Below, piece after piece: positions 170 through 22,681 of a stretch of DNA of 32,000 nucleotides. Positions within the stretch are counted from its first letter, which is position 1. Each line of letters starts with the position of its first letter. Under the pieces are notes generated by a model. That model did not search any database, had not been told where the DNA came from, and saw nothing but the letters and a program-made list of their open reading frames with translations. Both the position numbers and the translations under genes were made by a program. Source of the stretch: a virus; IMG/VR virus record IMGVR_UViG_3300032397_000002, positions 65,579 to 97,578 of that record; one strand, given 5' to 3'.

Positions 170-472
170 ATGAACGACAATCAACCGAACGACCTCCCGA
201 CGTTGTACGACTTCTGGGCCCCCTGGTGTGGCCCCTGTAGGGCGATGGCCCCCGCCATTGAGGCCCTGAGCAAGAAGTTCGAAGGGCGACTCGAAGTCAA
301 GAAGGTCAACATCGATGAACAGCCTGGTCTGGCGAAGTTCTACAGCGTCCAGAGCATCCCCACCTTGATTTTGATGGCTCCAGATGAGAGGATGAGAATC
401 ATCGGCGGTCGACCGAGCATCGACCTGGAAGCAAAGATTGAAGAAGCGCTGAAGACTGTTACTGCGGAGTAG
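170..472 (+). CDS. trxA: Thioredoxin
   Basis: 100 aa with the canonical WCGPC active site (FWAPWCGPCRAMAP) and the cis-Pro region (SIPTLILM). Size is typical of Trx. Confidence 0.9.
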   Translation: MNDNQPNDLPTLYDFWAPWCGPCRAMAPAIEALSKKFEGRLEVKKVNIDEQPGLAKFYSVQSIPTLILMAPDERMRIIGGRPSIDLEAKIEEALKTVTAE

Positions 473-533
473 ATTAACGGTAGATCAGCGGGCTCATACC
501 CCGCGCGTGAAGGTTCAACTCCTTCCTCCGCTA
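463..533 (+). tRNA. tRNA-Met (anticodon CAT), initiator (fMet)-like
   Basis: Hand-folded 71-nt cloverleaf. Acceptor is 463-469/526-532. D arm is GATT-AACGGTA-GATC. Anticodon arm is GCGGG-CTCATAC-CCCGC. Variable region is GCGT. T arm is GAAGG-TTCAACT-CCTTC, and the discriminator is A. Initiator hallmarks are present: a 1:72 mismatch (T x T), three G:C pairs closing the anticodon stem, and A11:T24. No encoded CCA. It overlaps the trx stop codon (470-472). Confidence 0.8.
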
Positions 534-660: not shown

Positions 661-666
661 TAGTTT

Positions 667-739
667 GGGGCCTTAGCTCAGCTGGGAGAGCGCCTGCCTT
701 GCACGCAGGAGGTCGACGGTTCGATCCCGTCAGGCTCCA
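667..739 (+). tRNA. tRNA-Ala (anticodon TGC)
   Basis: 73-nt cloverleaf: GGGGCCT TA GCTC AGCTGGG AGAGC G CCTGC CTTGCAC GCAGG AGGTC GACGG TTCGATC CCGTC AGGCTCC A. The G3:T70 alanine identity pair is present. No encoded CCA. Confidence 0.93.
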
Positions 740-745
740 TATGTC

Positions 746-1553: not shown

Positions 1554-2023
1554 GCTTCAAAATCAAGACTGTGACCATGTTCAAGCCCACCGACCTCAAC
1601 AAGTACCCCAAGGTCGACGAGGTCATCGCACTCGCTGCCGAAGATGGCCGGGTGGTCGAGTTGAAACTCACCGGCGACTGCTGCAGTGGGTCCTACTTCG
1701 AGGAGCAGAGTATCAAGGACGCCCAAACCCTGGTGGGTCAGACTCTCTTCAACATCGAGAATGCTGAGTCTGCCCGGCCCTACGTGAAGGCGGCGTACGG
1801 CTACACTGACGAGAAGACCGACAACTGGGTTGACGGTACCGATGCAATCCACTACCACTGCCTGAAGCTCACCACCGACCAGGGTGTGACCGTTCTGGAC
1901 TGGCGTAACGAGTCCAATGGCTACTACGACGGCACTTGTCGCGTTTCGGGCTGGTTCCTCCCCAACGTCTACGACGACTATGCCGACAACATCCGCTTCG
2001 AAGACATGGAGAGCACATCATGA
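1550..2023 (+). CDS. Hypothetical protein (CC-motif protein)
   Basis: 157 aa, ATGA-coupled at both ends. Contains GDCCSGSYFE and NESNGYYDG motifs. No family assigned. Confidence 0.65.
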   Translation: MSFKIKTVTMFKPTDLNKYPKVDEVIALAAEDGRVVELKLTGDCCSGSYFEEQSIKDAQTLVGQTLFNIENAESARPYVKAAYGYTDEKTDNWVDGTDAIHYHCLKLTTDQGVTVLDWRNESNGYYDGTCRVSGWFLPNVYDDYADNIRFEDMESTS

Positions 2024-2862
2024 GCATCTCAGCACGAGTCGTTGCCGACAGTCTCAGTCCATTGGGCAAGCGCATCACCACCTTCGTCTTGACCTACCCT
2101 CGCTTCGTGCATGCGGAGTTCATGACACATCGCGTCTTCAGTCGGAATGCGGCCAGTTCTCGGGCCATTCCGGCCCGAAAGATTCGAGCTTCAGTCCGCA
2201 TGGACCCCGCAATGCCCGTCTTCTGGGGTGCCAACCAGGCAGGCATGCAGGCTGACGTGGAGCTGAAGGGGCTCAAGTTATTCCTGGTTAAGTTACTCTG
2301 GATGAAGGCCATGTACTTGATGTTGTTCGTCAATTGGCTCCTGGAGAAGCTCGGCCTTCACAAGCAGATCGCCAACCGCATCACCGAGCCCTGGTTCAAT
2401 ATCACTGTGGTCTGCACCAGCACGGAGTGGGCGAACTTCTACAGCTTACGCAACCATGCCAAGGCCCAGCCTGAAATCAAGGCCCTTGCTGAGGTCATGC
2501 TCGAAGCCCAGAACCAAAGCATTCCGCGCATGCTCCAATACGGTGAGTGGCATCTCCCATTCATCGAGGAGTCAGACCTGGAAGACCTCGGCCTCGCACT
2601 CGCCAAGAAGGTCAGTGTGGCACGATGTGCTCGCGTCTCCTACCTCAACCATGATGGCAGGCGTTCGAGTGTCGAGGAAGACGAGAAGCTCTTCCAGCGC
2701 CTCGTGGGCGAGGAACCCAAGCACGCCAGTCCAGCAGAGCATCAGGCCACGCCGGGGGACGACCCCAACCGTCAACTGGGGAATTTCTTCGGCTGGATTC
2801 AGTACAGAAAGATGATTCCCAATGAAAACCTCGTGGAATACAAAGGACTTGTGATTCAATGA
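2020..2862 (+). CDS. thyX: Flavin-dependent thymidylate synthase, ThyX-like
   Basis: 280 aa starting at ATG 2020 (ATGA overlap). The ThyX signature region is FMTHRVFSRNAASSRAIP, against the canonical RHRxxSxxxxSxR. A downstream ANRITEPW...NFYSLR region matches the ThyX helical core. Confidence 0.75.
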   Translation: MSISARVVADSLSPLGKRITTFVLTYPRFVHAEFMTHRVFSRNAASSRAIPARKIRASVRMDPAMPVFWGANQAGMQADVELKGLKLFLVKLLWMKAMYLMLFVNWLLEKLGLHKQIANRITEPWFNITVVCTSTEWANFYSLRNHAKAQPEIKALAEVMLEAQNQSIPRMLQYGEWHLPFIEESDLEDLGLALAKKVSVARCARVSYLNHDGRRSSVEEDEKLFQRLVGEEPKHASPAEHQATPGDDPNRQLGNFFGWIQYRKMIPNENLVEYKGLVIQ

Positions 2863-4640: not shown

Positions 4641-5480
4641 ATGGCAGACTACACGAACTCCCGATTCTCTGTCGGCGCTGTCATGCCCGAGAATGCGGTG
4701 CAGACCACATTCCCCAGCATGGAGCCGCTCATCACCCCCGAGCTGCTGAAGATGAGGCATCTCCTGGGTGTCAGCCTCGCCACGGCCAAGGACCCTCTGA
4801 CCGGCAAGGCCACCATCATCACCGACGATATTCTTGCTGATGCCATCGAGGGTGCAGTGGCCAGTGCAGAGCTGGAACTGAAGATTGACATCTTCCCAGT
4901 CAAGCGCCGAGAGAAGCAGCCCTTTGACTTGAATCTCTACCAGAGCTTTGGGTACTTTCAGCTCAGCCATCGGCCCTGCAGCAGCCTCGACAAGATGTCT
5001 GTCACACCCAGCAATCAGCTTGACGTCTACGTGGTGCCCAACGAGTGGGTCGAGACAGCGTATCTGGCTCGTGGCCAGGTGAACATTGTCCCCTTGACCA
5101 TCGCTTTCGTCCAGGGAACCTACATCCCCCAGCAGTCCGCCGGCGGTGCGGCCTTCTTGCAGATTCTCGGCAACAAGCCATGGATTCCTGCCTGGTGGCA
5201 GATTGAGTACACCTCGGGCTTTCCCAACGGCATGCTCCCACGCATCCTCAACGAGTACATTGGCAGTCGAGCTGCCGTGGAGATTCTCTCCCAGCTCGCT
5301 CTCAGCTTCGCACGTGCGAACAGCCAGAGCCTCGGCATTGACGGCCTGAGCCAGAGTGTCAGTACCCCTGGCCCTCAGATTTTCAAGGGTCGCATTGATG
5401 AGCTGGAAGAGAAGATGAAGGCCATCGGCAAGAAGGTCAAGGCGCTCTTCGGGTTCAAGATTTACAGTGGGACCATCTAA
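4641..5480 (+). CDS. Hypothetical virion protein; N-terminal part loosely resembles gp6-like head-tail connector/adaptor proteins
   Basis: 279 aa with SD AAGGAG 5 nt upstream. The stretch ITPELLKMRHLLGV...DDILADAIEGAVASAELELKIDIFP is reminiscent of the connector-family N-terminus. This is a weak call. Confidence 0.6.
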   Translation: MADYTNSRFSVGAVMPENAVQTTFPSMEPLITPELLKMRHLLGVSLATAKDPLTGKATIITDDILADAIEGAVASAELELKIDIFPVKRREKQPFDLNLYQSFGYFQLSHRPCSSLDKMSVTPSNQLDVYVVPNEWVETAYLARGQVNIVPLTIAFVQGTYIPQQSAGGAAFLQILGNKPWIPAWWQIEYTSGFPNGMLPRILNEYIGSRAAVEILSQLALSFARANSQSLGIDGLSQSVSTPGPQIFKGRIDELEEKMKAIGKKVKALFGFKIYSGTI

Positions 5481-5489
5481 GGGGGCGTT

Positions 5490-8400
5490 GTGAAGCTTGG
5501 CAAGTCCCAACGCGAGAAGGAGCCGACGAAGGTAGCCTCTGTCGCTGCCTTCAATCCTGACGGCTTGCTTCTGTTCGGCCTCCGCAACGACACCGAGAAA
5601 TGGACCTTGCCTGGTGGCCACTTTGAGCCTGGTGAAGAGCCCATCGAGGCCGCACGCCGAGAGCTTGAGGAAGAGACGGGCCTGAAGGGTGAGAACTTCG
5701 AGTTCCTTGGCGTGGGCGCTGTCAAGGAAGACCTCCACATCTACTGCTTCCGCTGTCTGGTTGCAGGCGACCCCGACGGTGGCGAAGACCCCGACGAAGA
5801 GTGCTCTGAGTGGAAGTGGTGTGAGCCCTGTGATATTCCTGAGGAGGTCATGGGCAACCTGCACTCCAAGAAGAACATCACGTTGAGGCTGTTGGGCATC
5901 CAGGAAGGCGAAGTCGAAGAGCCCCTGGAGAAGAAGGACCTTGTTGTCACCAAGCCCTTTCCCGTTCAGCACTACAGCACTACGCCAGGCCTGAAGCAGC
6001 TTGACCCTGCCTTCCAGGGGACCGGCAGCGCAGGCCAAGAGAAGAACCGCACCAAGAGAATTCCAAGGACGTACTACTATTCACGTCCGGGCGTGCCGGA
6101 AGCCCACGTTGCCTCCGCCGCCCACCTTTACCACGGGGAGCTGCCCAAGGGCACCCGGCTCTACGACATGGGCAATGACTCCATGGGCCTGATGACTGGC
6201 AAGTGGAGACAGACCAAGCAGGGCATGATGTACGATGCCCCCGACCGCGACAGGGCCGAGAAGAAGCTCAAGGCGCTGGGCTACCACGGGTACCACAACT
6301 ACGGCACCCAGGACGCCCTGGTCTACTTCCACCCACTGCCCGTCCGTCACATCACCAAGTCTGAGGATCTCGACAAGGCCGTCCTCGACCCAAATGCCGG
6401 GTATGCGATTACCCACACGGTCACGCAAGAACCAGCTCAAACCACCCGTCGCGGTGCAGTCCAAGCTAAGACGTACGTGAAAGTGTTAGCCCACCACAAC
6501 GGCAGTATTGTGGGCGCCCTGCACTTGGATGGTTACCATGCGGGCTCGCCTTCAATCACAGCGTTCAACATTGAAGTAGATCCAGCTCATCGACGCAAGG
6601 GTCTTGCTAGTGCCATGTACGCGCACGCTGAAAAGGTCACGGGTTTGAAGGCATCTCCCAGCTCTACCCAATCCCGCGAAGGACGTTTGCTGTGGGAGGG
6701 GAACAATAACACTCCACAGTTCGGCAAGTCTGAAGAGAGCCTCCAGAAGGGTTTCATGGCTGCAGCAGCCATCGCCGGCGCTATGGCCATGGGTGGTGCT
6801 TCCAAGCCCCCAGCTGCCCCGCAGGAGCAAGTTCAGCAGGCACCCAAGCCCCAGATGAACGAGGTAGCCCAGGCCAGCGGCATGCCCGCCTGGACCCCCG
6901 AGGAGCTACATCCCGACCTCATCCCCATCGCTCACCTTGAGTCCAGCTTCGGTCAGAACATGGCGCACGCCAGCCACCCCAAGGGCGAGTTTCATACCGC
7001 TCATGGCGCACTTGGTTTCAAGCCTATCACTGCGCACGAAGAGTACACCAAGTCGAAGTTCATGAACCAGAAGTACCCAGGCCTCAGTTCGCCTGAAGTG
7101 TTTTTGGAGAAGTTCAAGGGCGACAACAAGTTCTACAACCTGCTGGCCAGTGCCCACTTCGCACGTCTGAAAGCTAGACATGGTGACCCACAGAAGGCGG
7201 CATACGCCTGGCGCTGGGGCAGTACCGCATGTGCCAATGCGACTGATGAGCAGATCAAGAACGACGCCTACGTTCAACGGTACACCGCCATGCAGCTGCA
7301 CGGGAAGCAGCTTCAGAAGAATACCGAGGAAATTCTCTCCAAGGGTGAATTCCGCTCGGCTGCCTTCAAGCACAAGGATGGCACCGTAGCGGAGACCGGT
7401 GTCTACCACAACATCGAGCCCTGGCTGCTGGGCGGCTCCATGTCCCATCGCCCCGATGGCCCTCACAACTCCTCGGACTGGGAGGCCGGCTTCGTAACCA
7501 ACGGGGGCGCCTTCATGAACAGGGACCAGGCGGCCAAGCACGTCAGCTTGCACCGCTACAGCCCGGTCACCGGAGAGCTTCGCAACCTGGACTCTCAGGA
7601 CCCTGAGGCGTTTGGCAAGGAAGAGGAACCACCCGAAGGCGCTGACACCAGCTTTGACTTCGGTGCCAATGACCCAGCCCAAGACCAGCTCCATCAGAAA
7701 GCCCTGAAGTCCATTGCCCGGATGCACCCGGACAACCAAAAGATGGCCCAGGCTTGGATTGCCTTCACCAGGGGGCAAACAACTCAGAGGCCTGTTATTC
7801 ACCCAGACATGGAAAGACACCTCGCCAGATTCGGCATCGTGGACCCCAAGGGCTTCCCTTACGCCGAGAATGGACGCTCAATGGAGCGGGTGCAGGCGAA
7901 GACTGGACCTAAGAGGGCTCCAGGTGCCAAGCGTGTGGAGCAACCCGAAGGCCTCCGCCGGTACCGAGGCCTGGACCGCGACTACTTCATGCCCTACCAG
8001 CGTTCTGAGGAGGGCGAAAACGACCTCCTCAAGACCGAGCATGACCCCCTTGAGGCGATGCTGCAGCACGAGAATCCCCGTGAGCGCATCCTCGCCCTGA
8101 AGAACAAGCACGTCACCCCCTACCATCTCCGCATGGCCCTCGATGACGAGGACCCCGAGGTGCGAGCCTTTGCTGCGCGTCATCCCAAGATGACGGAGCC
8201 CCTGATTCATGAAGCTCTCCATCACGAGAGCATCCACACTCGAAAGGCGGCCTTGAGCCGTCCCGACTTGACGTCGGAACACATCCAGTCCGTCCTCTTC
8301 GACCCCGACATTCAGACCCTGGCAGCGATGCACCCGCGTTGCACGGAAGAGCAGCGTTCCATGGTCAGTGACCACCACCTGACTCCCCCAGGGCTCCGCC

Positions 8401-10223
8401 ACGAGCTGTTGGCCAAGACGGTGGGCTTCCTGATGTACCCCCGCCTGGGACAGGACAAGGTCACCAACAGGCCGATGGTGCATGAGCCTGCCGTCCATCA
8501 GAAACTGGCTGAGGCGAACAACCGAGCAAACCCATCGGCCAACCTCGGCTTCGTCAGGGCCTCCGCCCTCGATAGGGAGCCTACGCCACCTGAGGCGAGA
8601 TGGACTACGATGAGCATGAGGGGTGGCCGCGCACCGAATGCTCACCTCGGTACCATGGGCCACGAGACTCAGCACGGCATCTTCACACACCTCAAGCAGG
8701 TCTACGGCAAGGAGGCTGGCCATCGCATCATCGCCACAACTCTGACCGCCCTCGACCCATCCGAGCATAAGCACCTGAAAAATCTCACGAATTGGGCTAT
8801 CAAGAGCTACGATTCCGTCAGGCATCCAGAGGAGCGGATCGCTTACCTCCAGAACTACCTTCAGGACCAGATGTGGAGGGCCAAGGCCCACAAGCACATG
8901 AAGATTCTCGGCCACCGCAATGCCGAGAAGGCCAGCCACGACATTGCCAAGGGCATCTGGAAGAAGCTCAAGCTCCGCGCCGAGGCTCTGACCCCCCAAG
9001 AGGTTGGCGTCATCCGCAAGTCCGAGCTTGACATCATTCGAGACTGGGTGAGCCTGAAGACGGGAGATGTACAAGTTGAGCAGTTTGTCAAGTCTGACCC
9101 TGATGTGGGGTATGATAGTACCTACGAGGACCAGTTGGGTATGCAGTCGAAGTTTGAGGCTTTTCTGAAAGCAGGCAAGTTCTTGGCTCACGCGGAGCCA
9201 GACCTTGGTCTGTTTCGGCAGGCCATGCTGGCTGGCCTCGACCTCGATGCTGCAGTGCTCACCTCGGTGGGCCTGGAGGTTGACCACAAGAGCCGCCGGG
9301 CACTGCTGGCTGTCGTGTCCCTGCAGGATGGCAAGCTCGGCAAGGCCGACGTACATCGGACCCACGAAGTCCATGCTTTGATGCCAGACGGCGCCGATGT
9401 GGCCGATGGTGTGCGAAGGGGCTTCAGTGCAGAGACTGAGCAAGACCTGCACCTGGGTGGTCGCCACAGCAAGGGCACCATGATGGTCAGGGACCCGGAC
9501 ACGGGCATGATGTATCTCATCAAACCGGGCAGCGGCAACCAGAGCCCAGCCATGGGTGCGCGTGAAGAGGGTGCCAATCAGAGCCGGCGCGAAGCCGCCT
9601 TCTGGCATGTCGCCGACGTCCTCGGTCTTGGCAATCGTGTGCCACGAGCAGACTTGCTTCTGATTGATGGGCAAGAAGTAGCTGCTCTTCATTTGCTCCC
9701 GTTCAGCTGGAAGAACCTGGAGAAGCTCAAGTTCCAAGACCCGGGCCTGCCACACAAGGCGCTGGAGAAGTACCGCTCCACCGGCGAGCTGCACAAGTGG
9801 GCTGTCCTGGACTACCTCCTGGGCAACCCCGACCGCCATGGCCAGAATCTGATGGTTGGGCCGGAGAAGGATGACCACCCAGTGGCCCTCATTGACCACG
9901 GTAGCGCCTTCGCGGGGCCCAGCTTCGACCCGGCCAGAGACAAGAACTCCTTCATCCCCTACTACCTGCGAGCTTGGAGGGGTGACACCTGGAAGGACCT
10001 GACCCCAGAGCAGCGCCTTCGTGCCATGCCATCATTGGCGCGAGACGCCGACGATCAACTCAGAACCTGGCTTGAGGGCGTCCACGCCGGCGATGTTGAA
10101 CAGATTCTGGCGCGGTACGGTATCGACCCAGCACCCAGCCTGCAGCGCATGGTCCGCCTGAAGCAGCTCCTGGCCGAGCCCAGCGTGAGTCAGGCCATCA
10201 ACCGACTTTGGCTGGCGACGTAA
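5490..10223 (+). CDS. Polyvalent multidomain virion/ejection-type protein (Nudix + GNAT-like + TM + lytic transglycosylase + LRV/HEAT-like repeats + HExxH + PI3/4-kinase-like)
   Basis: Uninterrupted 1577-codon ORF with a GTG start and AGGGGG SD. Individual domains are listed as separate features below. Confidence 0.9.
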   Translation: MKLGKSQREKEPTKVASVAAFNPDGLLLFGLRNDTEKWTLPGGHFEPGEEPIEAARRELEEETGLKGENFEFLGVGAVKEDLHIYCFRCLVAGDPDGGEDPDEECSEWKWCEPCDIPEEVMGNLHSKKNITLRLLGIQEGEVEEPLEKKDLVVTKPFPVQHYSTTPGLKQLDPAFQGTGSAGQEKNRTKRIPRTYYYSRPGVPEAHVASAAHLYHGELPKGTRLYDMGNDSMGLMTGKWRQTKQGMMYDAPDRDRAEKKLKALGYHGYHNYGTQDALVYFHPLPVRHITKSEDLDKAVLDPNAGYAITHTVTQEPAQTTRRGAVQAKTYVKVLAHHNGSIVGALHLDGYHAGSPSITAFNIEVDPAHRRKGLASAMYAHAEKVTGLKASPSSTQSREGRLLWEGNNNTPQFGKSEESLQKGFMAAAAIAGAMAMGGASKPPAAPQEQVQQAPKPQMNEVAQASGMPAWTPEELHPDLIPIAHLESSFGQNMAHASHPKGEFHTAHGALGFKPITAHEEYTKSKFMNQKYPGLSSPEVFLEKFKGDNKFYNLLASAHFARLKARHGDPQKAAYAWRWGSTACANATDEQIKNDAYVQRYTAMQLHGKQLQKNTEEILSKGEFRSAAFKHKDGTVAETGVYHNIEPWLLGGSMSHRPDGPHNSSDWEAGFVTNGGAFMNRDQAAKHVSLHRYSPVTGELRNLDSQDPEAFGKEEEPPEGADTSFDFGANDPAQDQLHQKALKSIARMHPDNQKMAQAWIAFTRGQTTQRPVIHPDMERHLARFGIVDPKGFPYAENGRSMERVQAKTGPKRAPGAKRVEQPEGLRRYRGLDRDYFMPYQRSEEGENDLLKTEHDPLEAMLQHENPRERILALKNKHVTPYHLRMALDDEDPEVRAFAARHPKMTEPLIHEALHHESIHTRKAALSRPDLTSEHIQSVLFDPDIQTLAAMHPRCTEEQRSMVSDHHLTPPGLRHELLAKTVGFLMYPRLGQDKVTNRPMVHEPAVHQKLAEANNRANPSANLGFVRASALDREPTPPEARWTTMSMRGGRAPNAHLGTMGHETQHGIFTHLKQVYGKEAGHRIIATTLTALDPSEHKHLKNLTNWAIKSYDSVRHPEERIAYLQNYLQDQMWRAKAHKHMKILGHRNAEKASHDIAKGIWKKLKLRAEALTPQEVGVIRKSELDIIRDWVSLKTGDVQVEQFVKSDPDVGYDSTYEDQLGMQSKFEAFLKAGKFLAHAEPDLGLFRQAMLAGLDLDAAVLTSVGLEVDHKSRRALLAVVSLQDGKLGKADVHRTHEVHALMPDGADVADGVRRGFSAETEQDLHLGGRHSKGTMMVRDPDTGMMYLIKPGSGNQSPAMGAREEGANQSRREAAFWHVADVLGLGNRVPRADLLLIDGQEVAALHLLPFSWKNLEKLKFQDPGLPHKALEKYRSTGELHKWAVLDYLLGNPDRHGQNLMVGPEKDDHPVALIDHGSAFAGPSFDPARDKNSFIPYYLRAWRGDTWKDLTPEQRLRAMPSLARDADDQLRTWLEGVHAGDVEQILARYGIDPAPSLQRMVRLKQLLAEPSVSQAINRLWLAT
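5526..5900 (+). other. Nudix hydrolase domain of the polyvalent protein
   Basis: A perfect Nudix box, GX5EX7REUXEEXGU, reads G43-HFEPG-E49-EPIEAAR-R57-E-L-E-E-E-T-G-L65 (nt 5616-5684). Confidence 0.85.
6357..6737 (+). other. GNAT-like acetyltransferase module (copy 1)
   Basis: ITAFNIEVDPAHRRKGLASAMYAHAEKV carries the acetyl-CoA motif A (R-x-x-G-x-A). The whole module, LDKAVLDPNAGY...PQFGKSE, is paralogous to 12579-12917. Confidence 0.6.
6750..6803 (+). other. Predicted transmembrane/hydrophobic segment
   Basis: GFMAAAAIAGAMAMGGAS, followed by a P/Q-rich linker and then the SLT domain. Confidence 0.5.
6918..7300 (+). other. Lytic transglycosylase (SLT-like) domain
   Basis: LIPIAHLESSFGQN supplies the catalytic Glu in the E-S motif (codon 6939-6941). 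It is followed by HGALGFKPITA and AAYAWRWGS, which is typical goose-type/SLT architecture. Confidence 0.7.
8067..8360 (+). other. Leucine-rich-variant/HEAT-like helical repeats
   Basis: Periodic DDEDPEVRAFAARHP / HESIHTRKAALSRPD / DPDIQTLAAMHP units. Confidence 0.45.
8661..8675 (+). other. HExxH (zincin-like) motif
   Basis: GTMGHETQHGIF (H1058-E-T-Q-H1062). It is a single motif and the fold is unverified. Confidence 0.35.
9450..9965 (+). other. PI3K/PI4K-like atypical kinase catalytic core
   Basis: MMYLIKPG provides a candidate ATP-binding Lys. The catalytic loop is DYLLGNPDRHGQNLMV (DRHxxN, nt 9831-9848). LIDHGSAF is the DFG equivalent (9894-9902). Confidence 0.55.
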
Positions 10224-10686
10224 GCTCGCTGATGTAGCTCCAAAGCCTCTGGTATTCTGCTACAGCCTCATCTCGCTGTTTGGTCAGCTCAGCGACCTCC
10301 TCCTTCAAAAGCCTAACTCGTTCTTCGCTGTGCCTTTCGATGGGTTCGGAGGGCGGTATGACTATGTGGAAACTCTCCCCGCTCTCCTCGGGCCTGAGGA
10401 TTCGTTCTACCCGCCGACACTTGTATTCTTTTCCCTCATCCGGGATTGGAATCTGGCCGTAGTAGAGGTCGGATAGGGTTCTTTGGATTGCCTGCATCCG
10501 CTGAAACTTCTGCCTGTCGGTCAAGACCTCTCCGGTTCGGCTGATTCCACGAACCGTAAGCTCGTAGACTTCCGTCGGAGTAAATCCATGGGTGCCGGCC
10601 ATTCTCAGAATGGCCAGCATTTCGCCTTCGCTTTTACTGAACCGCTCTTTGACCTCTGTGAATGCTACGAGTTGTGCTTCGCTCAT
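10198..10686 (-). CDS. Reverse-oriented hypothetical protein, possible winged-helix DNA-binding regulator with C-terminal coiled coil
   Basis: 162 aa with SD GAGGT 5 nt upstream. The N-terminal SEGEMLAILRMAGTHGFTPTEVYELT looks wHTH-like. The 3' end overlaps the polyvalent ORF by 26 nt. G+C is lower (52-53% in two hand-counted 100-nt samples, against 62% at 9441-9540). Confidence 0.65.
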   Translation of the reverse strand: MSEAQLVAFTEVKERFSKSEGEMLAILRMAGTHGFTPTEVYELTVRGISRTGEVLTDRQKFQRMQAIQRTLSDLYYGQIPIPDEGKEYKCRRVERILRPEESGESFHIVIPPSEPIERHSEERVRLLKEEVAELTKQRDEAVAEYQRLWSYISELTSPAKVG

Positions 10687-10692
10687 ACCCTA

Positions 10693-10721
10693 CCTCTATC
10701 AGGCCCCAAATTGGGTGTCAA
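10693..10721 (-). promoter_or_regulatory. Candidate sigma70-type promoter for the reverse gene
   Basis: On the minus strand: TTGACA (plus 10716-10721), a 17-nt spacer, then TG-A-TAGAGG (a weak -10 with a TGn extension), then 6 nt, then ATG. Confidence 0.3.
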
Positions 10722-10725
10722 GGCC

Positions 10726-10735
10726 GGCAATCTTC
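10726..10735 (+). promoter_or_regulatory. Conserved upstream motif copy 3 (GGCAATCTTC)
   Basis: Lies in the divergent gap 10687-10756, 22 nt before ATG 10757, and is followed by the SD AGAAGAGG. Confidence 0.4.
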
Positions 10736-10756
10736 TTTTCAGAAGAGGTATCCAAA

Positions 10757-11071
10757 ATGGACCTAAGCGCAAAGCAAATCGATGAGAAACCCAAGAAGGT
10801 TGGGGTACTTAAGGGGCGACCCGTGTACCACCTTCGCACCAAGGGTGGTCTCCACATCCTTGTCACCCCAGGCGGCACTGGCTACGAAACCCTTGGAACT
10901 GGCCCCCATCGAGCCGTGGCACGTCACATCGCCCAGAAGCACGAGCCCGAGATTGTCTGGTCCGAGCTGAGCAAGTCCGACCACGTCGACATCGAGGCCT
11001 TCGAGTTGGTTCTCCCCAAGTACGAGAGTCTCACCGACGCCCTCAGGGCCATCTGTGAGCCGGTGAAGTAA
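10757..11071 (+). CDS. Hypothetical protein
   Basis: 104 aa from ATG 10757 with SD AGAAGAGG. The longer track ORF starting at 10592 would run antisense through the reverse gene. Confidence 0.6.
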   Translation: MDLSAKQIDEKPKKVGVLKGRPVYHLRTKGGLHILVTPGGTGYETLGTGPHRAVARHIAQKHEPEIVWSELSKSDHVDIEAFELVLPKYESLTDALRAICEPVK

Positions 11072-11072
11072 C

Positions 11073-11942
11073 ATGGCAAGAGACGGTCGTAAACCTATCG
11101 AGCCGATGGCGATAGATCAACGTGACATTGAAGTATCGTTCGACCCTGATGCTTTCGACGCAGCCCTCCGTAGCCATGGTGTCAGTTTGGTGCACTATGT
11201 GGCCCTACGTTGCCCTGTCGGCATGACGGACCTCGATGACAACCGTCGCCCCCACGAAGACCACGCAGGCTGCAGCAACGGTTTCCTCTACTCCAAGGCC
11301 GGCTGTATCAAGGCCCTCATGGTTGGCAACCAGAACAAGCAGGACCTCCGTGACATCGGCTTTGTAGATGGGGCCAGCGCCACCTCCACCTTCCCACGCA
11401 CCTACGAGGACGGGGAGAAGGACTTCTACCTTGCCCCCTACGACCGCTTCTACCTCAATGAGGAGAGTATCACCGTCCCCACCTGGCAGCTGAGCCGTTG
11501 CAATGAGAGTGGAACGGAACGTTTGGCCTTCCCCGCCGCCTGTGTTGAGCACCTGGTTGATTCAAGGGGCGACACCTACAAGGAGGGAGAGGACTTCCAT
11601 GTTCACAGTGGCCAGGTCTTGTGGCTGCCTGACGGGAAACGCCCCATCAACGACCTGGAAACGGGCCGTGGGTCTGTCATCAGCATCCGCTACCGCTATC
11701 GCCCCTTCTGGTACTGTGCTCGTCTCCTTCACGAGATTCGCGTTGCCCAGATTGAGCACCCCATCCTCGATGAAAGGCGCCTCATCCGCATGCCCCAGCA
11801 GGCCCTCCTCAATCGAGAGTTCTTGTTCCTCAACGAGAGCCATGACGACCAGGCCCGCCGAGACCCCAGGAACAAGGACTCTGGCCCGGAAAGTCCACGT
11901 CAGACCCCAGAACCAGACGATGGCGGCTTTGGTCCACGGTAA
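11073..11942 (+). CDS. Hypothetical protein (likely virion component, by context)
   Basis: 289 aa, starting 1 nt after the upstream stop. No motif recognised. Confidence 0.65.
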   Translation: MARDGRKPIEPMAIDQRDIEVSFDPDAFDAALRSHGVSLVHYVALRCPVGMTDLDDNRRPHEDHAGCSNGFLYSKAGCIKALMVGNQNKQDLRDIGFVDGASATSTFPRTYEDGEKDFYLAPYDRFYLNEESITVPTWQLSRCNESGTERLAFPAACVEHLVDSRGDTYKEGEDFHVHSGQVLWLPDGKRPINDLETGRGSVISIRYRYRPFWYCARLLHEIRVAQIEHPILDERRLIRMPQQALLNREFLFLNESHDDQARRDPRNKDSGPESPRQTPEPDDGGFGPR

Positions 11943-11947: not shown

Positions 11948-11957
11948 CCCCTTGGAG

Positions 11958-13277
11958 ATGACGATGTCCGACTTGGGCAGAAAATTCATGGCGGCGGCAC
12001 TTGGGAACGATGGGGCTCAGGCCCTCCGCAAGGCTGCTGAGCGTGAACCTGCCCTAGACCAGGTCCTCATCCCTCGCGCCATTGTAGGCTGGCTGTCTTT
12101 CACCACCGAGCATGAGTACGAAGGCCAGATTCCAGGTGTTGAGAACAGCTACGTGCAGTTTCAGAAGTCAGACAGCGGCTTCAGTGGCAGCATCACCCTC
12201 AATGAGGGCATCTACAGCTTTGAAAATGCCAGTCTCTACCACCTCGCTGCCAGCATCGCAATGGCCCTGGGCGTCGAGACGGGTTCCTTGGAGGCTGGGG
12301 TTCGAGATACGGTCCTGGTGAAGCTGGGCAAGAGCATCGACACCTTGGCCAAGGCTCAAATTCTGATGGCAGAGCTGAGGTCCCCCAAAACGCTTCAGCC
12401 ACAGAAGATGTCAAGTCACGGCGCTTACCATGTGGAACACATGGGCCAGGGCGATAGGCCCTACTTGGTTGTCCACAGTCTCTCCAAGTCGACTGTCCAG
12501 CGTGGGATTGCAAGTCTCAAGGACGCCGGAGAAATCGCCACCTGGCACCACAAGAAGTACAAGGGCGCCTTCCATCCAAACCTGGACAAGGCTGTATTGG
12601 ACCCCAAACTGGGCTACCAAATCCATCACGAGGAAGCACCAGAAATTGCCGGCTCAGGCCCACTGCTTCGCATCAAGGCGGTTGCACCAAACGGGCAAAC
12701 CGTTGGCCACGCGCTCTTCACTCATCACGGTCCACATCTGCAGCCGGCCACTGTAGCTGTTGACGAAGACCACCAGCGTCGAGGTCTTGGCTCTGCCATG
12801 TATGCTCACGCCGAGAAGGTCACAGGCAAGAAGTTGATTCCATCGAAACTCCAGACTGACGAAGGTCAGGCACTCTGGTCAGGTAACACCAAGAACCCGC
12901 AGTTCGGCAAGGTCGAACTCCCCGGGCACGCACATCTCCCTACCCAGCAGCAAGGCCCCCAGGGCGCCATGCCACCCCAGAAGCAGCCAGCGATGGGTCA
13001 GGCCACTCAGGGTGCAGCACCCAAGCCCAAGCTCCCCAAGGCGCCCAAGCAGCCCCCTCTCGCGGTCGGCAAGTCCGAGTCTGAGCAGGCCTGCGAGGTC
13101 TGTGGTGGGCACCAGTTCGAGAGCAACAAGTTCAGGGGCTGCATCTGTTTCAGGGACTTGGCCAAGAGCATCAAGACCACCGCCTATGGCGACGGCTACG
13201 TGTTGGACTTCAGCTCCAGCATCGATGCCGACACAGTCAGGGCTCTGATGAAGACTTTCAGGAGCCACAATGGATAA
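11958..13277 (+). CDS. GNAT-like domain protein with P/Q-rich linker and C-terminal Cys cluster
   Basis: The start is ambiguous (TTG 11952, ATG 11958 or ATG 11964). It carries GNAT-like module copy 2, ATVAVDEDHQRRGLGSAMYAHAEKV (Q-x-x-G-x-G), and a Zn-ribbon-like CEVCGGHQFESNKFRGCIC. Confidence 0.75.
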   Translation: MTMSDLGRKFMAAALGNDGAQALRKAAEREPALDQVLIPRAIVGWLSFTTEHEYEGQIPGVENSYVQFQKSDSGFSGSITLNEGIYSFENASLYHLAASIAMALGVETGSLEAGVRDTVLVKLGKSIDTLAKAQILMAELRSPKTLQPQKMSSHGAYHVEHMGQGDRPYLVVHSLSKSTVQRGIASLKDAGEIATWHHKKYKGAFHPNLDKAVLDPKLGYQIHHEEAPEIAGSGPLLRIKAVAPNGQTVGHALFTHHGPHLQPATVAVDEDHQRRGLGSAMYAHAEKVTGKKLIPSKLQTDEGQALWSGNTKNPQFGKVELPGHAHLPTQQQGPQGAMPPQKQPAMGQATQGAAPKPKLPKAPKQPPLAVGKSESEQACEVCGGHQFESNKFRGCICFRDLAKSIKTTAYGDGYVLDFSSSIDADTVRALMKTFRSHNG

Positions 13278-14295
13278 CGCACCCCACTGGAACGGTCGGA
13301 AGATCGCCAAAGACGAAGACAAGCACGATCTGGAGTCGAGGGCTGCCGTCTACGAGTTCAAGCACCGGATGGCCCGGCCTGACGCCGAGCATCGCGCCCA
13401 CCACGAGTACAAGCAGGACAAGCACCGTGAGGCAGCTGCGTACCACATGCAGGGGCTCAAGGCAGCTCAAGCCGCTGGCAGCCACGAAGAAGGCCACAAG
13501 CACGGCATGATGTACCAGCTCCACATGAAAGAGCTGGGCTTGGACCCCATGGGGCCGGTTCCCCACGAAATCAAGGGCCTGGCTGACAAACAGGACAAGT
13601 TCTACCACTTCAAGGCTCATCGAGGCGACGCCTTCTTGCTCCAGGATGATGGTGTGAAGAAGTCCGAGCTGGCCAAGGCCGACGGCAAGGTGCTTCCATT
13701 CAAGGGCAACCCCAACCCCAAGCAGGACCTGGGCCAGGATGCCAAGCAGGCCGGCTACATCAGGCCTGAGGGCTCTTTTGCCTACAAGCCGAAGGAGCAG
13801 GGCGGTGGGTGGAAGCCGGCGCCAGCACCAGAGCCACAGAAGGTTCCAGCGGGCTGGGACGCAGCGGTCAAAGAGACTGCAGCTGCAGGTTCTCAGGCTG
13901 CACCGCCGGCGGGAAACGTTCTCAGTGCCATGCCCAAGCTCAATGCCAGGGCAGAGTCCAGGAAGCAGCTGGCCCGCACCAAGGTCCAGGGCATCCTCGA
14001 AGATGCAGCCAGCATCATGGCGGAAGACCCAGGCTTCAAGGAAGCAGCTCGCCAACGCGATGTTGAGGCCAAGAAGGCCAAGCTCAAGGCCGGCGGCCAG
14101 CTTTACAAGGAAGGCCAGACGGTCTCGCACGTAGACCCCTCGCGGATTCCTTGGAAGGGTGTCGTCCACTCTGGTGGCTACCAGGAGAACGGCATCGATG
14201 GCCCTGGACACTACTACGAGGTCCGTTGGTGGAATCCGAAGTTGAAACAACACCACGAAGACCTCTACCACCAAGACGACCTGAAGCCGGGGTAA
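13270..14295 (+). CDS. Hypothetical His/Lys-rich protein
   Basis: 341 aa with an 8-nt overlap with the upstream gene. The N-terminal half is His-rich, followed by an A/P-rich linker and a small beta-rich C-terminal region (WKGVVHSGGYQENGIDGPGHYYEVRWW). Confidence 0.65.
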   Translation: MDNAPHWNGRKIAKDEDKHDLESRAAVYEFKHRMARPDAEHRAHHEYKQDKHREAAAYHMQGLKAAQAAGSHEEGHKHGMMYQLHMKELGLDPMGPVPHEIKGLADKQDKFYHFKAHRGDAFLLQDDGVKKSELAKADGKVLPFKGNPNPKQDLGQDAKQAGYIRPEGSFAYKPKEQGGGWKPAPAPEPQKVPAGWDAAVKETAAAGSQAAPPAGNVLSAMPKLNARAESRKQLARTKVQGILEDAASIMAEDPGFKEAARQRDVEAKKAKLKAGGQLYKEGQTVSHVDPSRIPWKGVVHSGGYQENGIDGPGHYYEVRWWNPKLKQHHEDLYHQDDLKPG

Positions 14296-14298
14296 GAC

Positions 14299-14910
14299 AT
14301 GAGCAAGTTCGAAGACGCGATTCCAGTCATCATGGCCCACGAGGGCACCGACACCAACTTCTGGGTCGATGACCCGGCTGACCCGGGCGGTGAGACCGTC
14401 TGGGGTTGGTCGATGCTGACCATCAAGAAGCTCGGCCTGACCCCCCAGGACCTCGGCCTGCCTCAACTCGTGTTCACCCCCGGCTGTCTCAAGGCCGTCA
14501 GCAAGCAGACCTGCCAGAGCCTCTACCGGAAGTTCTTCTGGAACCAGCTCGGCTACCAGAACGTGGCCGACCAGACCGCTGCCACCAAGATGATGGACGC
14601 CGCTGTCAACATGGGCCCCAAGAGGGCTGCGGAGTTCGCCCAGAGAGCCTGTAATGCCCTGGGTGCGGCCCTGGATGTGGACGGCAGCCTTGGAACCAAG
14701 AGCTGGGCAGCCATCAACGCCTGTGATTCCGAAGACTTTGTGAGGGCTTACGCCGACGAGATGTCGGCCTACTACCTCCGCATCATCGCCAGGAACCCAT
14801 CCTTGGCGAAGTTCCAGAAGAACTGGCTCAGGAGAGCACAGTGGGGCGTCAAGCCCAAAGCGCCCCCGGCACTTCCGCCGATGGCAACAGAACCGGTCGA
14901 AGAGCAGTAA
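14299..14910 (+). CDS. Glycoside hydrolase family 108-type lysozyme with C-terminal peptidoglycan-binding region
   Basis: IMAHEGTDTNFWVDDPADPGGETVWGWS matches the GH108 N-terminal EGG...DP.DPGG.T.YG signature. LDVDGSLGTKSWAAI resembles the PG_binding_3 motif. Confidence 0.8.
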   Translation: MSKFEDAIPVIMAHEGTDTNFWVDDPADPGGETVWGWSMLTIKKLGLTPQDLGLPQLVFTPGCLKAVSKQTCQSLYRKFFWNQLGYQNVADQTAATKMMDAAVNMGPKRAAEFAQRACNALGAALDVDGSLGTKSWAAINACDSEDFVRAYADEMSAYYLRIIARNPSLAKFQKNWLRRAQWGVKPKAPPALPPMATEPVEEQ

Positions 14911-14915
14911 TCTAA
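14906..14915 (+). promoter_or_regulatory. Conserved upstream motif, degenerate copy 5 (AGTAATCTAA)
   Basis: Spans the lysozyme TAA stop, 34 nt before ATG 14949. The core reads AATCTA instead of AATCTT. Confidence 0.25.
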
Positions 14916-14948
14916 CAGACGTACAACCTTCCCTTTGGGAGCAACACA

Positions 14949-15290
14949 ATGGCACTTTCAGAAAGCCTCACGAAGCGACTCATGCACGCAGTCACCGACC
15001 AGGACCTTGGCCGGGAGCTGGTGGACGCAGTTAACCAGGGCCAGGCGCTGGCCTCCCTCTGCTCTCACGGCGCGGCTGCTGCGATTGTGGCCACCAACGT
15101 GAGCCAGACCGTTGACTTCGGGGCCCTGAAGGTGGGCGACAAGATTCTCATCTTCCCTGCCGTAGCCGGCACGTCGCAGTTCCTGACGGTCGCTACGGCC
15201 GGCACCCTTGGCCAGGCCGCTGTTGTTGGCGACCTGTACCTGGTCCTCCGCGCCGACGCCGTACCTGCAGCTTCCAGCGTCAAGCTGTAA
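14949..15290 (+). CDS. Hypothetical protein
   Basis: 113 aa with SD GGGAG. Ala/Val-rich. Confidence 0.6.
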   Translation: MALSESLTKRLMHAVTDQDLGRELVDAVNQGQALASLCSHGAAAAIVATNVSQTVDFGALKVGDKILIFPAVAGTSQFLTVATAGTLGQAAVVGDLYLVLRADAVPAASSVKL

Positions 15291-15378
15291 GATGTGGTAG
15301 ACTGAAGCCATGAACAGCTACCATTGACGGCAGCGGTACCCAAAGCCCGCCGCCAGAGTTTCCCGAAGCCCAGAATGC

Positions 15379-15411
15379 CCCAGAACAGGGGTCTTCTGGG
15401 CTTTCATTTTT
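15379..15411 (+). terminator. Rho-independent terminator-like hairpin
   Basis: 7-bp stem CCCAGAA/TTCTGGG (15379-15385 with 15394-15400), an 8-nt loop, then CTTTCATTTTT. Confidence 0.55.
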
Positions 15412-21331: not shown

Positions 21332-22681
21332 ATGAAGCTCTTCGTGTCTTTCGATGGTGACCACATTGGCCGCATGGTTGGCAGGGCCAGCCTTGCCGAC
21401 AATCCCGAGGAAGTCTCCAGGATTGCACAGGGAATTGACCGTGGCAACCGCCTGTGGGCGAGCTGGGCTGAATCTCATGGCGGCAAGGTCATCAACATCG
21501 GTGGCGACGAAGGCCGGCTGGAGATTGAGGCGGACTACCTCTCTGAGCTGCCCGGCATCCGTGAGCAGTACGAAGGGGCCGTGGGTAGCACCTGCAGCGT
21601 GGGCGTTGGTACCAAGCTCAGCGAGGCTGACAAGAGCCTGATGGCAGCGAAGCTCCAGGGTGGAGACCGCACCCAGCTCTACACCGAAGAGGTTGATGAG
21701 ATTCTGTCCAAAGTCAAGGAGAAGTCTGAGGGCGAGAAGCTTGAAGACGAGTACCTTGACCCCGAGACAGGCCTGAAGAAGGCGGATCCGGCAACGAATC
21801 CGGCCATGAATCCCGGCGATAATGCCGGATTCTCTGGTGCCAGCCAGAGCACCCCAGCTGCCCCTCAGAAGCCCACCGAAGGAAGCGAACACAGCGAGAA
21901 CGAGGCCCTCAACAGCCAAATTGCAGCTGCACCCAAGCCCCCGGAAGCCCCCAAGGCCACTGCAGCTGACTACGAGCAGCTCTTCCACCAGCTGGCAGCC
22001 CAGCAGAAGGATGTGCCAGCTCAGAAGCCCTCTGGTGTGGTCGATGGTGTCCGTGAGCAGGTCGTCAAGGTACTCCAAAATGTGAGGGCTCACGCTCCAG
22101 AATTGGAGCAGATGAAGGCGAGCAACCCTGAGATGTACCAGTCCGTGGTGGGCGTTGTCCAGGCGATGATTGCCATGGCGCAGAGCACCCTGGGCGATGA
22201 GGGCCAGCAGCCCCAGCAGGTTCAGAAGGCCGAGGACAAGATTGAACTTGACCCCAGTCAGCCCCCGAAGGATTCCAAGGTTCTCAGCAAGGACCTGATG
22301 CCAGGTGGCGCCGGCGACAACAAGCCTGACTCTGACTTCGACTCCGAGGAGCTTCTGGAGGGCATGAGGCAGGAGATGGTCGAACACGGTCTCGACGAGA
22401 AGAGGGCCAAGGAAGTTGCCAAGGACCATCTGGTCGAAGACCCCAACTACTACTCCAACATGGAGAAGGCCGCCCTGACTGCCGGCAAGACTGGTCGTCA
22501 CCAGGTGGATCTCCCTGTTGGTTCGCAGATTGATGCAGGTCCCAGCGCTGCCCATGAGAGTGGTGAGCTGAAGGTGCAGGACCCAGCAACAGGCAAGACG
22601 AAGTGGCGCAGTGTTCGTGCTGGCATTGTGATGGCACCGGATGGGACACCCACTTCGAGCCGGAACCCCAGCGGGGGCTAA
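21332..22681 (+). CDS. Minimal GGDEF/Cas10-palm (mCpol-like) nucleotide-cyclase domain protein with long low-complexity linker and conserved C-terminal module
   Basis: 449 aa. The N-terminal ~115 aa contain LFVSFDGDHIG (two acidic metal ligands, nt 21350-21370), the GGDEG hairpin (21500-21514) and SVGVGTKLSEADKSLMAAKLQGGDR. The last parallels the GGDEF-family SxGxA...AD.ALY.AK..GrN. A P/A/Q/E-rich middle follows, then GGAGDNKPDSDFDSEELLEGMRQEMVEHG...AKDHLVEDPNYY (22286-22471). Confidence 0.6.
   Translation: MKLFVSFDGDHIGRMVGRASLADNPEEVSRIAQGIDRGNRLWASWAESHGGKVINIGGDEGRLEIEADYLSELPGIREQYEGAVGSTCSVGVGTKLSEADKSLMAAKLQGGDRTQLYTEEVDEILSKVKEKSEGEKLEDEYLDPETGLKKADPATNPAMNPGDNAGFSGASQSTPAAPQKPTEGSEHSENEALNSQIAAAPKPPEAPKATAADYEQLFHQLAAQQKDVPAQKPSGVVDGVREQVVKVLQNVRAHAPELEQMKASNPEMYQSVVGVVQAMIAMAQSTLGDEGQQPQQVQKAEDKIELDPSQPPKDSKVLSKDLMPGGAGDNKPDSDFDSEELLEGMRQEMVEHGLDEKRAKEVAKDHLVEDPNYYSNMEKAALTAGKTGRHQVDLPVGSQIDAGPSAAHESGELKVQDPATGKTKWRSVRAGIVMAPDGTPTSSRNPSGG

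Follow-up and report, generated by a model that had tools for sequence, protein, structure and literature searches.

A many-module polyvalent protein from a relative of Myxococcus phage Mx1 and the linker motif at its junctions

The 32,000-nucleotide (nt) stretch of viral DNA analyzed here, which we call the window, is part of IMG/VR record IMGVR_UViG_3300032397_000002 (positions 65,579 to 97,578). At 5490..10223 on the plus strand it contains a gene for a protein of 1577 amino acids (aa) in which a Nudix hydrolase, a GNAT acetyltransferase, a predicted lytic transglycosylase and a predicted PI3/4-kinase-like core are joined to several modules without a known family. The locus raises the question of what kind of protein this is and where in the infection cycle it would act. 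An earlier note on this DNA took it for a multi-effector polyvalent protein of a tailed phage, and its domains, its signature-bearing homologs and its position in a structural operon all bear this out; we hold the domain map and the polyvalent classification with high confidence. We further judge it somewhat better than an even chance that the product is a capsid-processed, injected effector polyprotein of an Mx1-like contractile-tailed phage. The parts of that reading differ in strength: packaging in the virion is reasonably probable, while dissection of the chain by the head-maturation protease falls just short of even.

Module architecture of the family

As the earlier note had it, the gene is a single uninterrupted open reading frame (ORF); it begins with GTG and is preceded by a GGGGG ribosome-binding site at 5481-5485 (5-9 nt upstream of the start). 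An independent metagenomic contig encodes a 1577-aa protein, P0001, that is 99% identical to the window protein, and another homolog at 55% identity has the same architecture from end to end. Because these proteins share one architecture on independent contigs, the window protein is not an assembly artefact, and both misassembly and artefactual gene fusion were rejected. Minus-strand ORFs overlapping the gene (for example 7878-9899) were likewise rejected as real genes, since long chance ORFs are usual at 58.6% G+C and the plus frame has hundreds of homologs.

Searching a large protein collection gave 88 homologs that range from 867 to 2470 aa, many of them encoded on contigs of 100-200 kb. 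Their BLAST segments break at the same query positions and the corresponding modules occur in differing orders, which divides the window protein into nine modules (M1 to M9). Architectures were mapped with home-made module profiles over 224 family proteins of 351-2445 aa; there are more than 40 of them, the full arrangement of the window protein is found in two, and kinase-only, Nudix-kinase and HExxH-kinase forms occur without the SLT module. The family pattern read from these sequences is a fixed C-terminal kinase, usually an N-terminal Nudix module, and a variable interior. In the phage genome collection that was searched, the sole relative is Myxococcus phage Mx1, a 169.6-kb contractile-tailed phage (PMC10720576), and many of the metagenomic relatives are phages of about 150-170 kb. 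The Mx1 counterpart is split into WNM70333 ("NUDIX hydrolase", 1479 aa) and WNM70334 ("kinase", 619 aa), and the pair lies between the capsid gene and the tail sheath gene.

Polyvalent proteins combine two to fifteen distinct, mostly enzymatic domains related to conflict; phages or conjugative elements encode them among virion or transfer genes or as fusions to MuF or portal. The window protein has Nudix, GNAT, SLT-like and kinase domains plus five conserved modules, and its gene lies in a structural operon, with no MuF or portal fusion. The window protein itself contains no polyvalent signature domain (ART-PolyVal, PBECR or LPD). The classification is nevertheless right because its homologs carry ART-PolyVal and PBECR5, families that were defined from polyvalent proteins (Iyer et al. 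2017, PMC5512222): they were found in P0021, P0026, P0028 and Mx1 WNM70333, the last with ART-PolyVal. The Pfam list of the homologs also includes DUF5661, ParB-like N-terminal and GGDEF domains; PF26820, listed for several homologs, maps to no module of the window protein.

The individual modules

All features of the gene are on the plus strand and are given in window coordinates. The kinase module, M9, is the constant element of the family. It consists of a helical domain that always stands ahead of the kinase (M9a, 9099..9350, aa 1204-1287; alignment A2), and that is part of a 368-position profile to which hundreds of proteins align over its whole length, followed by a kinase core with C-terminal helices (M9b, 9351..10220, aa 1288-1577). 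An exhaustive profile search (E ≤ 1e-30) placed the kinase module in at least 420 clusters at 50% identity, in proteins of 351-2445 aa, and the module ends no more than five residues from the C-terminus in 155 of 174 sequences. The C-terminal PI3/4-kinase-like core that had been proposed for this region was confirmed at the level of sequence prediction: the segment scores 37.5 bits against the Pfam PI3_PI4_kinase model (cut-off 27.1), and its predicted catalytic residues are invariant. The catalytic loop, D1448-R-H-G-Q-N1453 (nt 9831-9848), is followed by D1469-H-G, and in 15 divergent homologs this DRHxxN loop and the D1469-H-G motif are invariant or nearly so. In the same homologs the glycines of a candidate G-loop (GGRHSKG, 1323-1329), K1345 (candidate β3 Lys), E1368 (candidate αC Glu), D1448, N1453 and D1469 are all invariant. 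Profile comparison with the PDB gave weak matches, confined to the catalytic loop, to ATM and PI3Ks (E about 0.08-1), and the Mx1 homolog has a weak HipA_C match. All of the residues that the earlier note had singled out across the protein (E61/E62, E484, D1448 and N1453) are conserved positions.

At the N-terminus, M1 (5490..5939, aa 1-150) is a Nudix hydrolase. The Pfam NUDIX model matches aa 15-116 (E 4e-21, 75.8 bits against a cut-off of 21.1), and the perfect Nudix box reported earlier is confirmed at aa 43-65 (nt 5616-5684), where the translation reads G43-x5-E49-x7-R57-E58-L-x-E61-E62-x-G64-L65. M1 also matches several PHROG nudix families, and its best PDB matches (1e-6 to 1e-7) are to ADP-ribose pyrophosphatase, Ap4A hydrolase and DIPP, a set with mixed substrates. 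Some Nudix subfamilies have recognizable signatures, such as a Pro about 16 residues past the box for ADP-ribose and SQPWPFPxS for NADH. Read by eye against such signatures, M1 lacks a Pro at 80-82 and has neither an NADH nor a CoA motif. The Nudix assignment is thus firm, and the substrate cannot be read from the sequence; of the earlier description as a "nucleotide/NAD-derivative hydrolase" the Nudix part stands, and the NAD-derivative part is not borne out by the sequence, since no subfamily signature that was checked is present and the PDB matches are mixed.

The stretch of about 140 aa after the Nudix domain that had been left unassigned is a discrete conserved module, M2 (5940..6365, aa 151-292; alignment breaks at about 150-290). 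Its invariant residues include H161, R190, Y197 and E204 (alignment A4), it turns up at differing positions in the homologs, and it has no match in Pfam, PHROGs, NCBIfam or a PDB profile search. The GNAT-like module noticed earlier follows as M3 (6366..6734, aa 293-415). Scanned alone, the segment scores 27.2 bits with Acetyltransf_1 (Pfam cut-off 20.7), and its translation contains R-R-K-G-L-A, which fits the acetyl-CoA motif R/Q-x-x-G-x-G/A. NCBIfam returned generic Nudix and GNAT matches for the window protein and nothing more.

Between M3 and the transglycosylase core lies a 17-residue Ala/Gly-rich segment, GFMAAAAIAGAMAMGGA (6750..6800, aa 421-437), and after it the P/Q-rich linker that had been described. 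The segment is weakly to moderately hydrophobic (Kyte-Doolittle about 1.1-1.5). Such a stretch is found just upstream of 55 of 59 SLT modules, compared with 10.5% of random windows. The earlier "hydrophobic helix" or "TM segments" survives as one conserved, weakly hydrophobic Ala/Gly-rich segment; by composition alone it resembles a signal-arrest-release (SAR) or signal anchor more than a classical transmembrane helix.

The core of the SLT-like module, M4, spans 6882..7319 (aa 465-610; 416-610 with the anchor). Neither the whole protein nor the segment matches Pfam SLT models, and the PDB profile search gave nothing. An AlphaFold2 model built from an alignment of 23 module homologs (predicted local distance difference test, pLDDT, 93.3) was compared with the PDB by Foldseek, as the earlier note had advised, and lytic transglycosylases took all of ranks 1-16 (probability 0.92-1.00, template modelling (TM) score ~0.5), among them P. 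aeruginosa and E. coli Slt, C. jejuni Cj0843, phiKZ gp144 and MltD. The candidate catalytic residue E484 (nt 6939-6941) is one of three invariant columns in the module, and the pair E484-S485, invariant or nearly so, fits the E-S motif whose catalytic Glu ends the first core helix in a lysozyme-like helical fold. The SLT lytic transglycosylase claimed earlier is thus confirmed, as an SLT-like module of predicted GH23 fold, by predicted structure alone.

The region of about 350 aa after M4, previously described as one unassigned block, is indeed without a known family but resolves into two mobile modules (612-715 and 719-841). M5 is small (7356..7637, aa 623-716; alignment breaks at 612-715), and copies 65-88% identical to it occur at other positions in P0007, P0035, P0036 and P0062. 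M6 (7638..8009, aa 717-840; breaks at 719-841) has copies 50-77% identical in P0030, P0032 and P0045. Neither has a match in Pfam, PHROGs or NCBIfam. M7 (8040..8444, aa 851-985; breaks at 845-985) is a stretch of putative HEAT/LRV-like helical repeats. For the repeats that the earlier note saw, the homologs carry LRV_2, HEAT and DUF2336 matches, and the window protein's own scores are all below threshold (HEAT_2 20.7 bits against 27.7, HEAT 19.9 against 23.5, LRV 9 against 21.6).

M8 (8571..9026, aa 1028-1179) contains the HExxH motif noted earlier, at 1058-1062 (nt 8661-8675). Across 18 homologs H1058, E1059, H1062, E1114, E1115 and N1122 are invariant, E1114 and E1115 being candidates for a third metal ligand, and a conserved metal site in M8 is plausible from these sequences. 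None of the 18 members has a Pfam match, and there is no PDB profile match. The AlphaFold2 model (pLDDT 86) is entirely helical, and a fold search with it found no match in the PDB or BFVD and no metallopeptidase. The protease claimed earlier had been read from HExxH alone. It is unsupported because the Pfam, PDB-profile, PDB-fold and BFVD-fold searches were all empty, and protease was rejected as a supported assignment for M8: the module is all-helical, with no zincin fold and no peptidase profile match.

A linker motif at the module junctions

Most of the junctions between these modules carry a short motif of the form Φ-x-K-[S/A/T/K]-[E/D]. Strict copies are LEKKD between M1 and M2 (5925..5939, aa 146-150), ITKSE between M2 and M3 (6351..6365, aa 288-292), FGKSE between M3 and M4 (6720..6734, aa 411-415), LLKTE between M6 and M7 (8025..8039, aa 846-850), IRKSE at the end of M8 (9012..9026, aa 1175-1179), FVKSD at the start of M9a (9084..9098, aa 1199-1203) and LGKAD between M9a and the kinase core (9336..9350, aa 1283-1287). 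Relaxed versions were seen by eye at other junctions: LSKGE at about 618, FGKEE at about 712 and, in homolog sequences, YQRSE at 836-840. The seven strict copies compare with 0.82 expected (P = 2e-4), and they coincide with the module-boundary peaks of homolog alignment ends (permutation P = 2e-4). Over the family, enrichment is 4-fold (z = 25) and motif copies stand 5-fold nearer than random positions to the ends of high-scoring segment pairs, in counts that come from related sequences and are not independent.

One homolog catches the junctions in the act of exchange. P0002, 98-99% identical to the window protein, has one extra 175-aa module exactly after the linker at 415, flanked by a duplicated linker (...KSEEALQKA-[insert]-ESEALQKG...). 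Because the insertion sits at a linker and is flanked by its duplicate, the linkers can be taken as joints for cassette exchange. The inserted module itself (residues 416-600) begins DSSGVWWHGTPTGDL and recurs in P0004, P0075, P0122 and P0152; its WHGT motif is reminiscent of ADP-ribosyltransferases.

The motif also occurs in head proteins. Just before its capsid gene, Mx1 encodes a 290-aa Pro/Ala/Gly-rich protein, scaffold-like by composition and by position, with four copies. All of its 80 homologs (80/80) carry the motif, at 4.1 copies per protein against 0.28 expected, a 15-fold enrichment, in conserved alignment columns. In the first 47 kb of Mx1 the motif is present twice in the portal protein, in both polyvalent proteins, and once or twice in the products of several genes from the kinase gene to the sheath gene, and the large terminase has two weaker copies; the helicase, sigma factor, ThyA, dNMP kinase, sheath and some twenty other proteins of that region have none. 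In the window, three ORFs that closely follow the polyvalent gene (10592-11071, 11952-13277 and 13270-14295) also encode strict copies, and three further ORFs encode one each. Because it is common to the scaffold-like protein, the portal and the polyvalent junctions, the linker may best be read as the site at which this clade's maturation protease cuts. In T4 and in phiKZ/SPN3US-like phages, scaffold is broken down and ejection proteins are trimmed by prohead proteases, which cut at short motifs that contain Glu (PMC10052503).

The exchange seen in P0002 is also what would be expected if the linker were a signature of recombination or of domain boundaries and nothing else. The protein would then be injected intact, at 175 kDa, or would be released by its own HExxH module; self-processing by embedded peptidases was proposed by Iyer et al. 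(PMC5512222), and HExxH is invariant here. We consider this unlikely, as the motif is enriched in the single-domain scaffold-like family, which shows no shuffling, and in the Mx1 portal, while many motif-bearing family members have no HExxH module and that module has no peptidase-like fold. In its fullest form, the maturation-site reading would make the linkers protease sites that release up to nine injected enzymes, and would have the C-terminal PI3/4K-like module recruit the chain into the prohead and represent a new class of phage-delivered kinase. That composite we put forward tentatively, as distinctly less than an even proposition.

Several further proteins touch on the linker or on the protease. 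Two genes downstream of the polyvalent gene, the 441-aa product of 11952-13277 (plus strand) combines a GNAT domain (aa 244-290) with linkers at aa 70 and 372, and is possibly another processed virion effector. A 449-aa protein encoded at 21332-22681 (plus strand) has an N-terminal mCpol domain (minimal CRISPR polymerase, a nucleotide cyclase; E 2.7e-9), a sub-threshold C-terminal DUF5661 match, and the linkers GLKKAD at 148 and QVQKAE at 297; it looks like a second, smaller multi-module protein built with linkers. An overlapping 621-aa minus-strand ORF (21305-23170) has no matches and is probably spurious. In Mx1 a "nucleotide cyclase" directly follows the "putative prohead protease" (1239 aa, 13002-16721; L006). 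The C-terminal part of the latter, read by eye (GQVDRNDGNYML ... HIDNAITW), is like a second PI4K-type catalytic loop plus DxG. Its residues ~230-255 (AKAMEAGNFNAAPSTLQGGSALQSE) are almost the same as the N-terminus of the capsid protein of Mx1 (RKAMEAGNFNAKPSTLVQGSAMQIE), a likeness that may reflect a maturation or recognition site, Φ-x-K-A-M-E in form, that both proteins have in common.

Gene neighbourhood, proposed delivery and known systems

The position of the gene bears directly on whether its product is packaged. The upstream gene (4641..5480, plus strand; phrog_772 and phrog_442, the latter a head-tail adaptor family) encodes a head-tail adaptor-like structural protein homologous to the one whose gene directly follows the capsid gene in SPO1-like Bacillus phages (Herelleviridae), and its stop codon sits 10 nt ahead of the polyvalent GTG. 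Downstream, 11073..11942 (plus strand) encodes a virion structural protein (phrog_1004) with a homolog in Mx1. The gene order adaptor-like, polyvalent, ~104 aa, ~280 aa is common to Mx1 and to two metagenomic lineages (L002 and L003). The content of the polyvalent gene varies among lineages, the L003 version being 2297 aa long with PBECR5 and ART-PolyVal, and by sequence comparison the gene is a conserved slot of the late operon with a hypervariable occupant. The short gap, the structural gene downstream and the synteny in Mx1 and the two lineages all support a late or virion role. Virion-packaged Nudix, Macro, ART and GNAT effectors have been predicted or published, especially for myoviruses (PMC9503650, PMC5512222).

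Nucleotide-metabolism genes are interspersed among the structural genes of the window: a thymidylate synthase gene (1936-2862, plus strand; phrog_85, with Thy1 in relatives) and a dNMP-kinase-like gene with a sub-threshold DNMK match (19616-20443, minus strand). Both such genes lie between the capsid gene and the polyvalent locus in Mx1, and Thy1, NT5C and DNMK are found near the locus in relatives. Such neighbours would suit a late, non-packaged cytoplasmic multi-enzyme that acts on nucleotide pools or host proteins or aids lysis, with linkers that are mere flexible joints, and so would the lack of a MuF or portal fusion. We regard this as quite unlikely. The phage has a dedicated GH108-type endolysin, encoded by a separate gene downstream (14299-14910), which leaves an anchored SLT module without an obvious late role. 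The head-tail adaptor-like gene ends immediately before the polyvalent start, family members carry ART-PolyVal and PBECR5, which are typical of delivered polyvalent proteins, and the linker motif is common to the scaffold-like and portal proteins. Because lysis has its own enzyme, the SLT module is free for a role in entry.

Tail-associated lysins and tape-measure proteins often contain muralytic domains, SLT among them, and an SLT module at the tail tip could breach the cell wall. The locus sits between neck and tail genes, and one PHROG label on its upstream neighbour (4641-5480) reads "tail fiber protein". A tail or baseplate structural protein of this kind (tail lysin, tape-measure-like protein or tube plug) is nonetheless very unlikely in our estimate. 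Many family members have no SLT module, which makes a conserved structural role in the tail improbable; lengths of 351 to 2445 aa are at odds with a ruler or a fixed component of the tail; and it is head proteins (scaffold-like and portal) that share the linker motif, not the sheath.

According to the packaged-polyprotein reading that we favor, the protein would be made late together with the structural proteins and taken into the prohead, where the head-maturation protease would cut the chain at the linker motifs into pieces of about 9-37 kDa that would exit the head together with the DNA. A cut at 415 would place the new N-terminus of the SLT piece just before the Ala/Gly-rich anchor, and this piece, arranged like a membrane-tethered specialised lytic transglycosylase, would attach to the inner membrane and make a local opening in the peptidoglycan. 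The Nudix, GNAT, kinase and family-less modules would act in the cytoplasm ahead of any phage transcription, and may modify host proteins or destroy nucleotide-derived defence signals.

A number of observations weigh against this reading. Packaging is read indirectly, from gene position, family membership and the linker shared with the scaffold-like and portal proteins, and the window protein has neither a MuF or portal fusion nor a recognisable capsid-targeting sequence. The enzymatic activities of the modules are predictions. The kinase match to Pfam covers about 60 of 241 profile positions (117-173), from the catalytic loop to DxG, and the SLT fold matches, although consistent, have modest E-values (0.02-0.2) and TM scores of ~0.5. 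As for the linker, the M7-M8 junction carries no copy, the Mx1 capsid protein has no strict copy, and the motif differs from the cleavage sites of T4 (L/I-x-E) and phiKZ/SPN3US (A/S/G-x-E). Pfam was empty for both the Mx1 "prohead protease" and the scaffold-like protein, and because the former has no match, the protease class cannot be used to predict specificity. Alternatively or in addition, the linker could serve as a recombination joint or be a preferred flexible linker.

Some features of the surrounding DNA stand apart from this question. A 162-aa minus-strand ORF (10198-10686) reaches 26 nt into the end of the polyvalent gene; in L002 three small minus-strand genes occupy this place, and Mx1 and L003 have none. 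The ORF looks like a small moron-like insertion directly after the polyvalent gene. A megablast of the window against phage genomes gave tRNA matches alone, so the window phage has no close isolate. Its tRNA genes are at 463-533 (plus), 666-740 (plus) and 16894-16968 (minus), for Met-CAT, Ala-TGC and Ile-AAT; the tRNA-Ala is 92-94% identical to tRNA-Ala genes of Stenotrophomonas phages, the window's sole nucleotide match to phage isolates.

If the modules are delivered at injection, a clade of soil and freshwater phages of ~150-170 kb has a rapidly reshuffled toolkit of Nudix, GNAT, ART, nuclease, cyclase and kinase modules, plus several family-less folds, that acts before transcription, which is where counter-defence against NAD- and nucleotide-signalling immunity would work best. 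M2, M5, M6 and the HExxH module would then be candidates for new anti-defence or takeover activities. The linker motif would be a sequence-readable marker for head-processed proteins in these phages and, as in P0002, would explain mechanically how modules swap. Should the chain indeed be dissected in the capsid, this would amount to a polyprotein strategy within the tailed-phage head, and a simple sequence rule would allow the clade's injected proteome to be read from genomes alone.

The earlier note took this domain combination to be uncharacterised, and that holds as far as our literature search reached. The search found no description of the family, the anchored SLT module, the four modules without relatives or the junction motif; a text search for PI3_PI4_kinase and phage gave nothing relevant, and no report of such a kinase was found for polyvalent proteins. 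The concept is already published, and the family, its kinase, the anchored SLT and a linker shared with a scaffold-like protein appear to be new in the sense that we found none of them described.

The window protein resembles the polyvalent proteins (PMC5512222), with which it shares many unrelated effector domains, virion-gene neighbours, GNAT and muralytic domains, and growth by accretion and shuffling. It differs from them in several respects. It has no MuF, portal or other known head-anchoring domain, and its junctions mostly carry a linker common to the scaffold-like protein. The kinase predicted here is PI3/4K/HipA-like and apparently complete, whereas that of Iyer et al. is truncated, of the Ser/Thr/Tyr type and from phages of Verrucomicrobia and Bacteroidetes (PMC5512222). 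Nudix, here the usual N-terminal module, is mentioned there in passing. The closest named relatives, Mx1 WNM70333 and WNM70334, are 43% identical over the matched parts and share the locus after the adaptor-like gene, the kinase module and the linkers, but are two genes with the order YunG-like, GNAT, ART-PolyVal and then Nudix, which is thus not N-terminal.

Single modules have counterparts in other systems. The M9b core shares with the PI3/PI4-kinase superfamily (including PIKKs and HipA) a G-N-P-D-R-H-G-Q-N loop and an L-I-D-H-G motif, equivalent to DRHxxN and DFG, but the catalytic-loop region alone aligns to the models and there are no lipid-kinase accessory domains. M4 is comparable to T7 gp16, VirB1, EtgA and SAR endolysins in its predicted GH23/SLT-type fold with an E-S motif, its potentially membrane-active segment and its proposed part in envelope crossing. 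Unlike T7 gp16, VirB1 and EtgA, it is too divergent for Pfam SLT models, with G-A-L-G-F-K-P in place of GLMQ and A-Y-A-W-R-W-G in place of AYNxG; its anchor, SAR-like by composition alone, is internal to the polyprotein and not at the translated N-terminus.

The nearest precedents for the proposed route are the T4 head-internal proteins and Alt and the ejection proteins of phiKZ/SPN3US-like giant phages, which are packaged enzymes, trimmed by a protease at a Glu motif and injected (PMC9503650, PMC10052503), whereas the window protein is known from its sequence. Those proteins are single-function and have N-terminal propeptides, while the cleavage proposed here would dissect a multi-domain chain.

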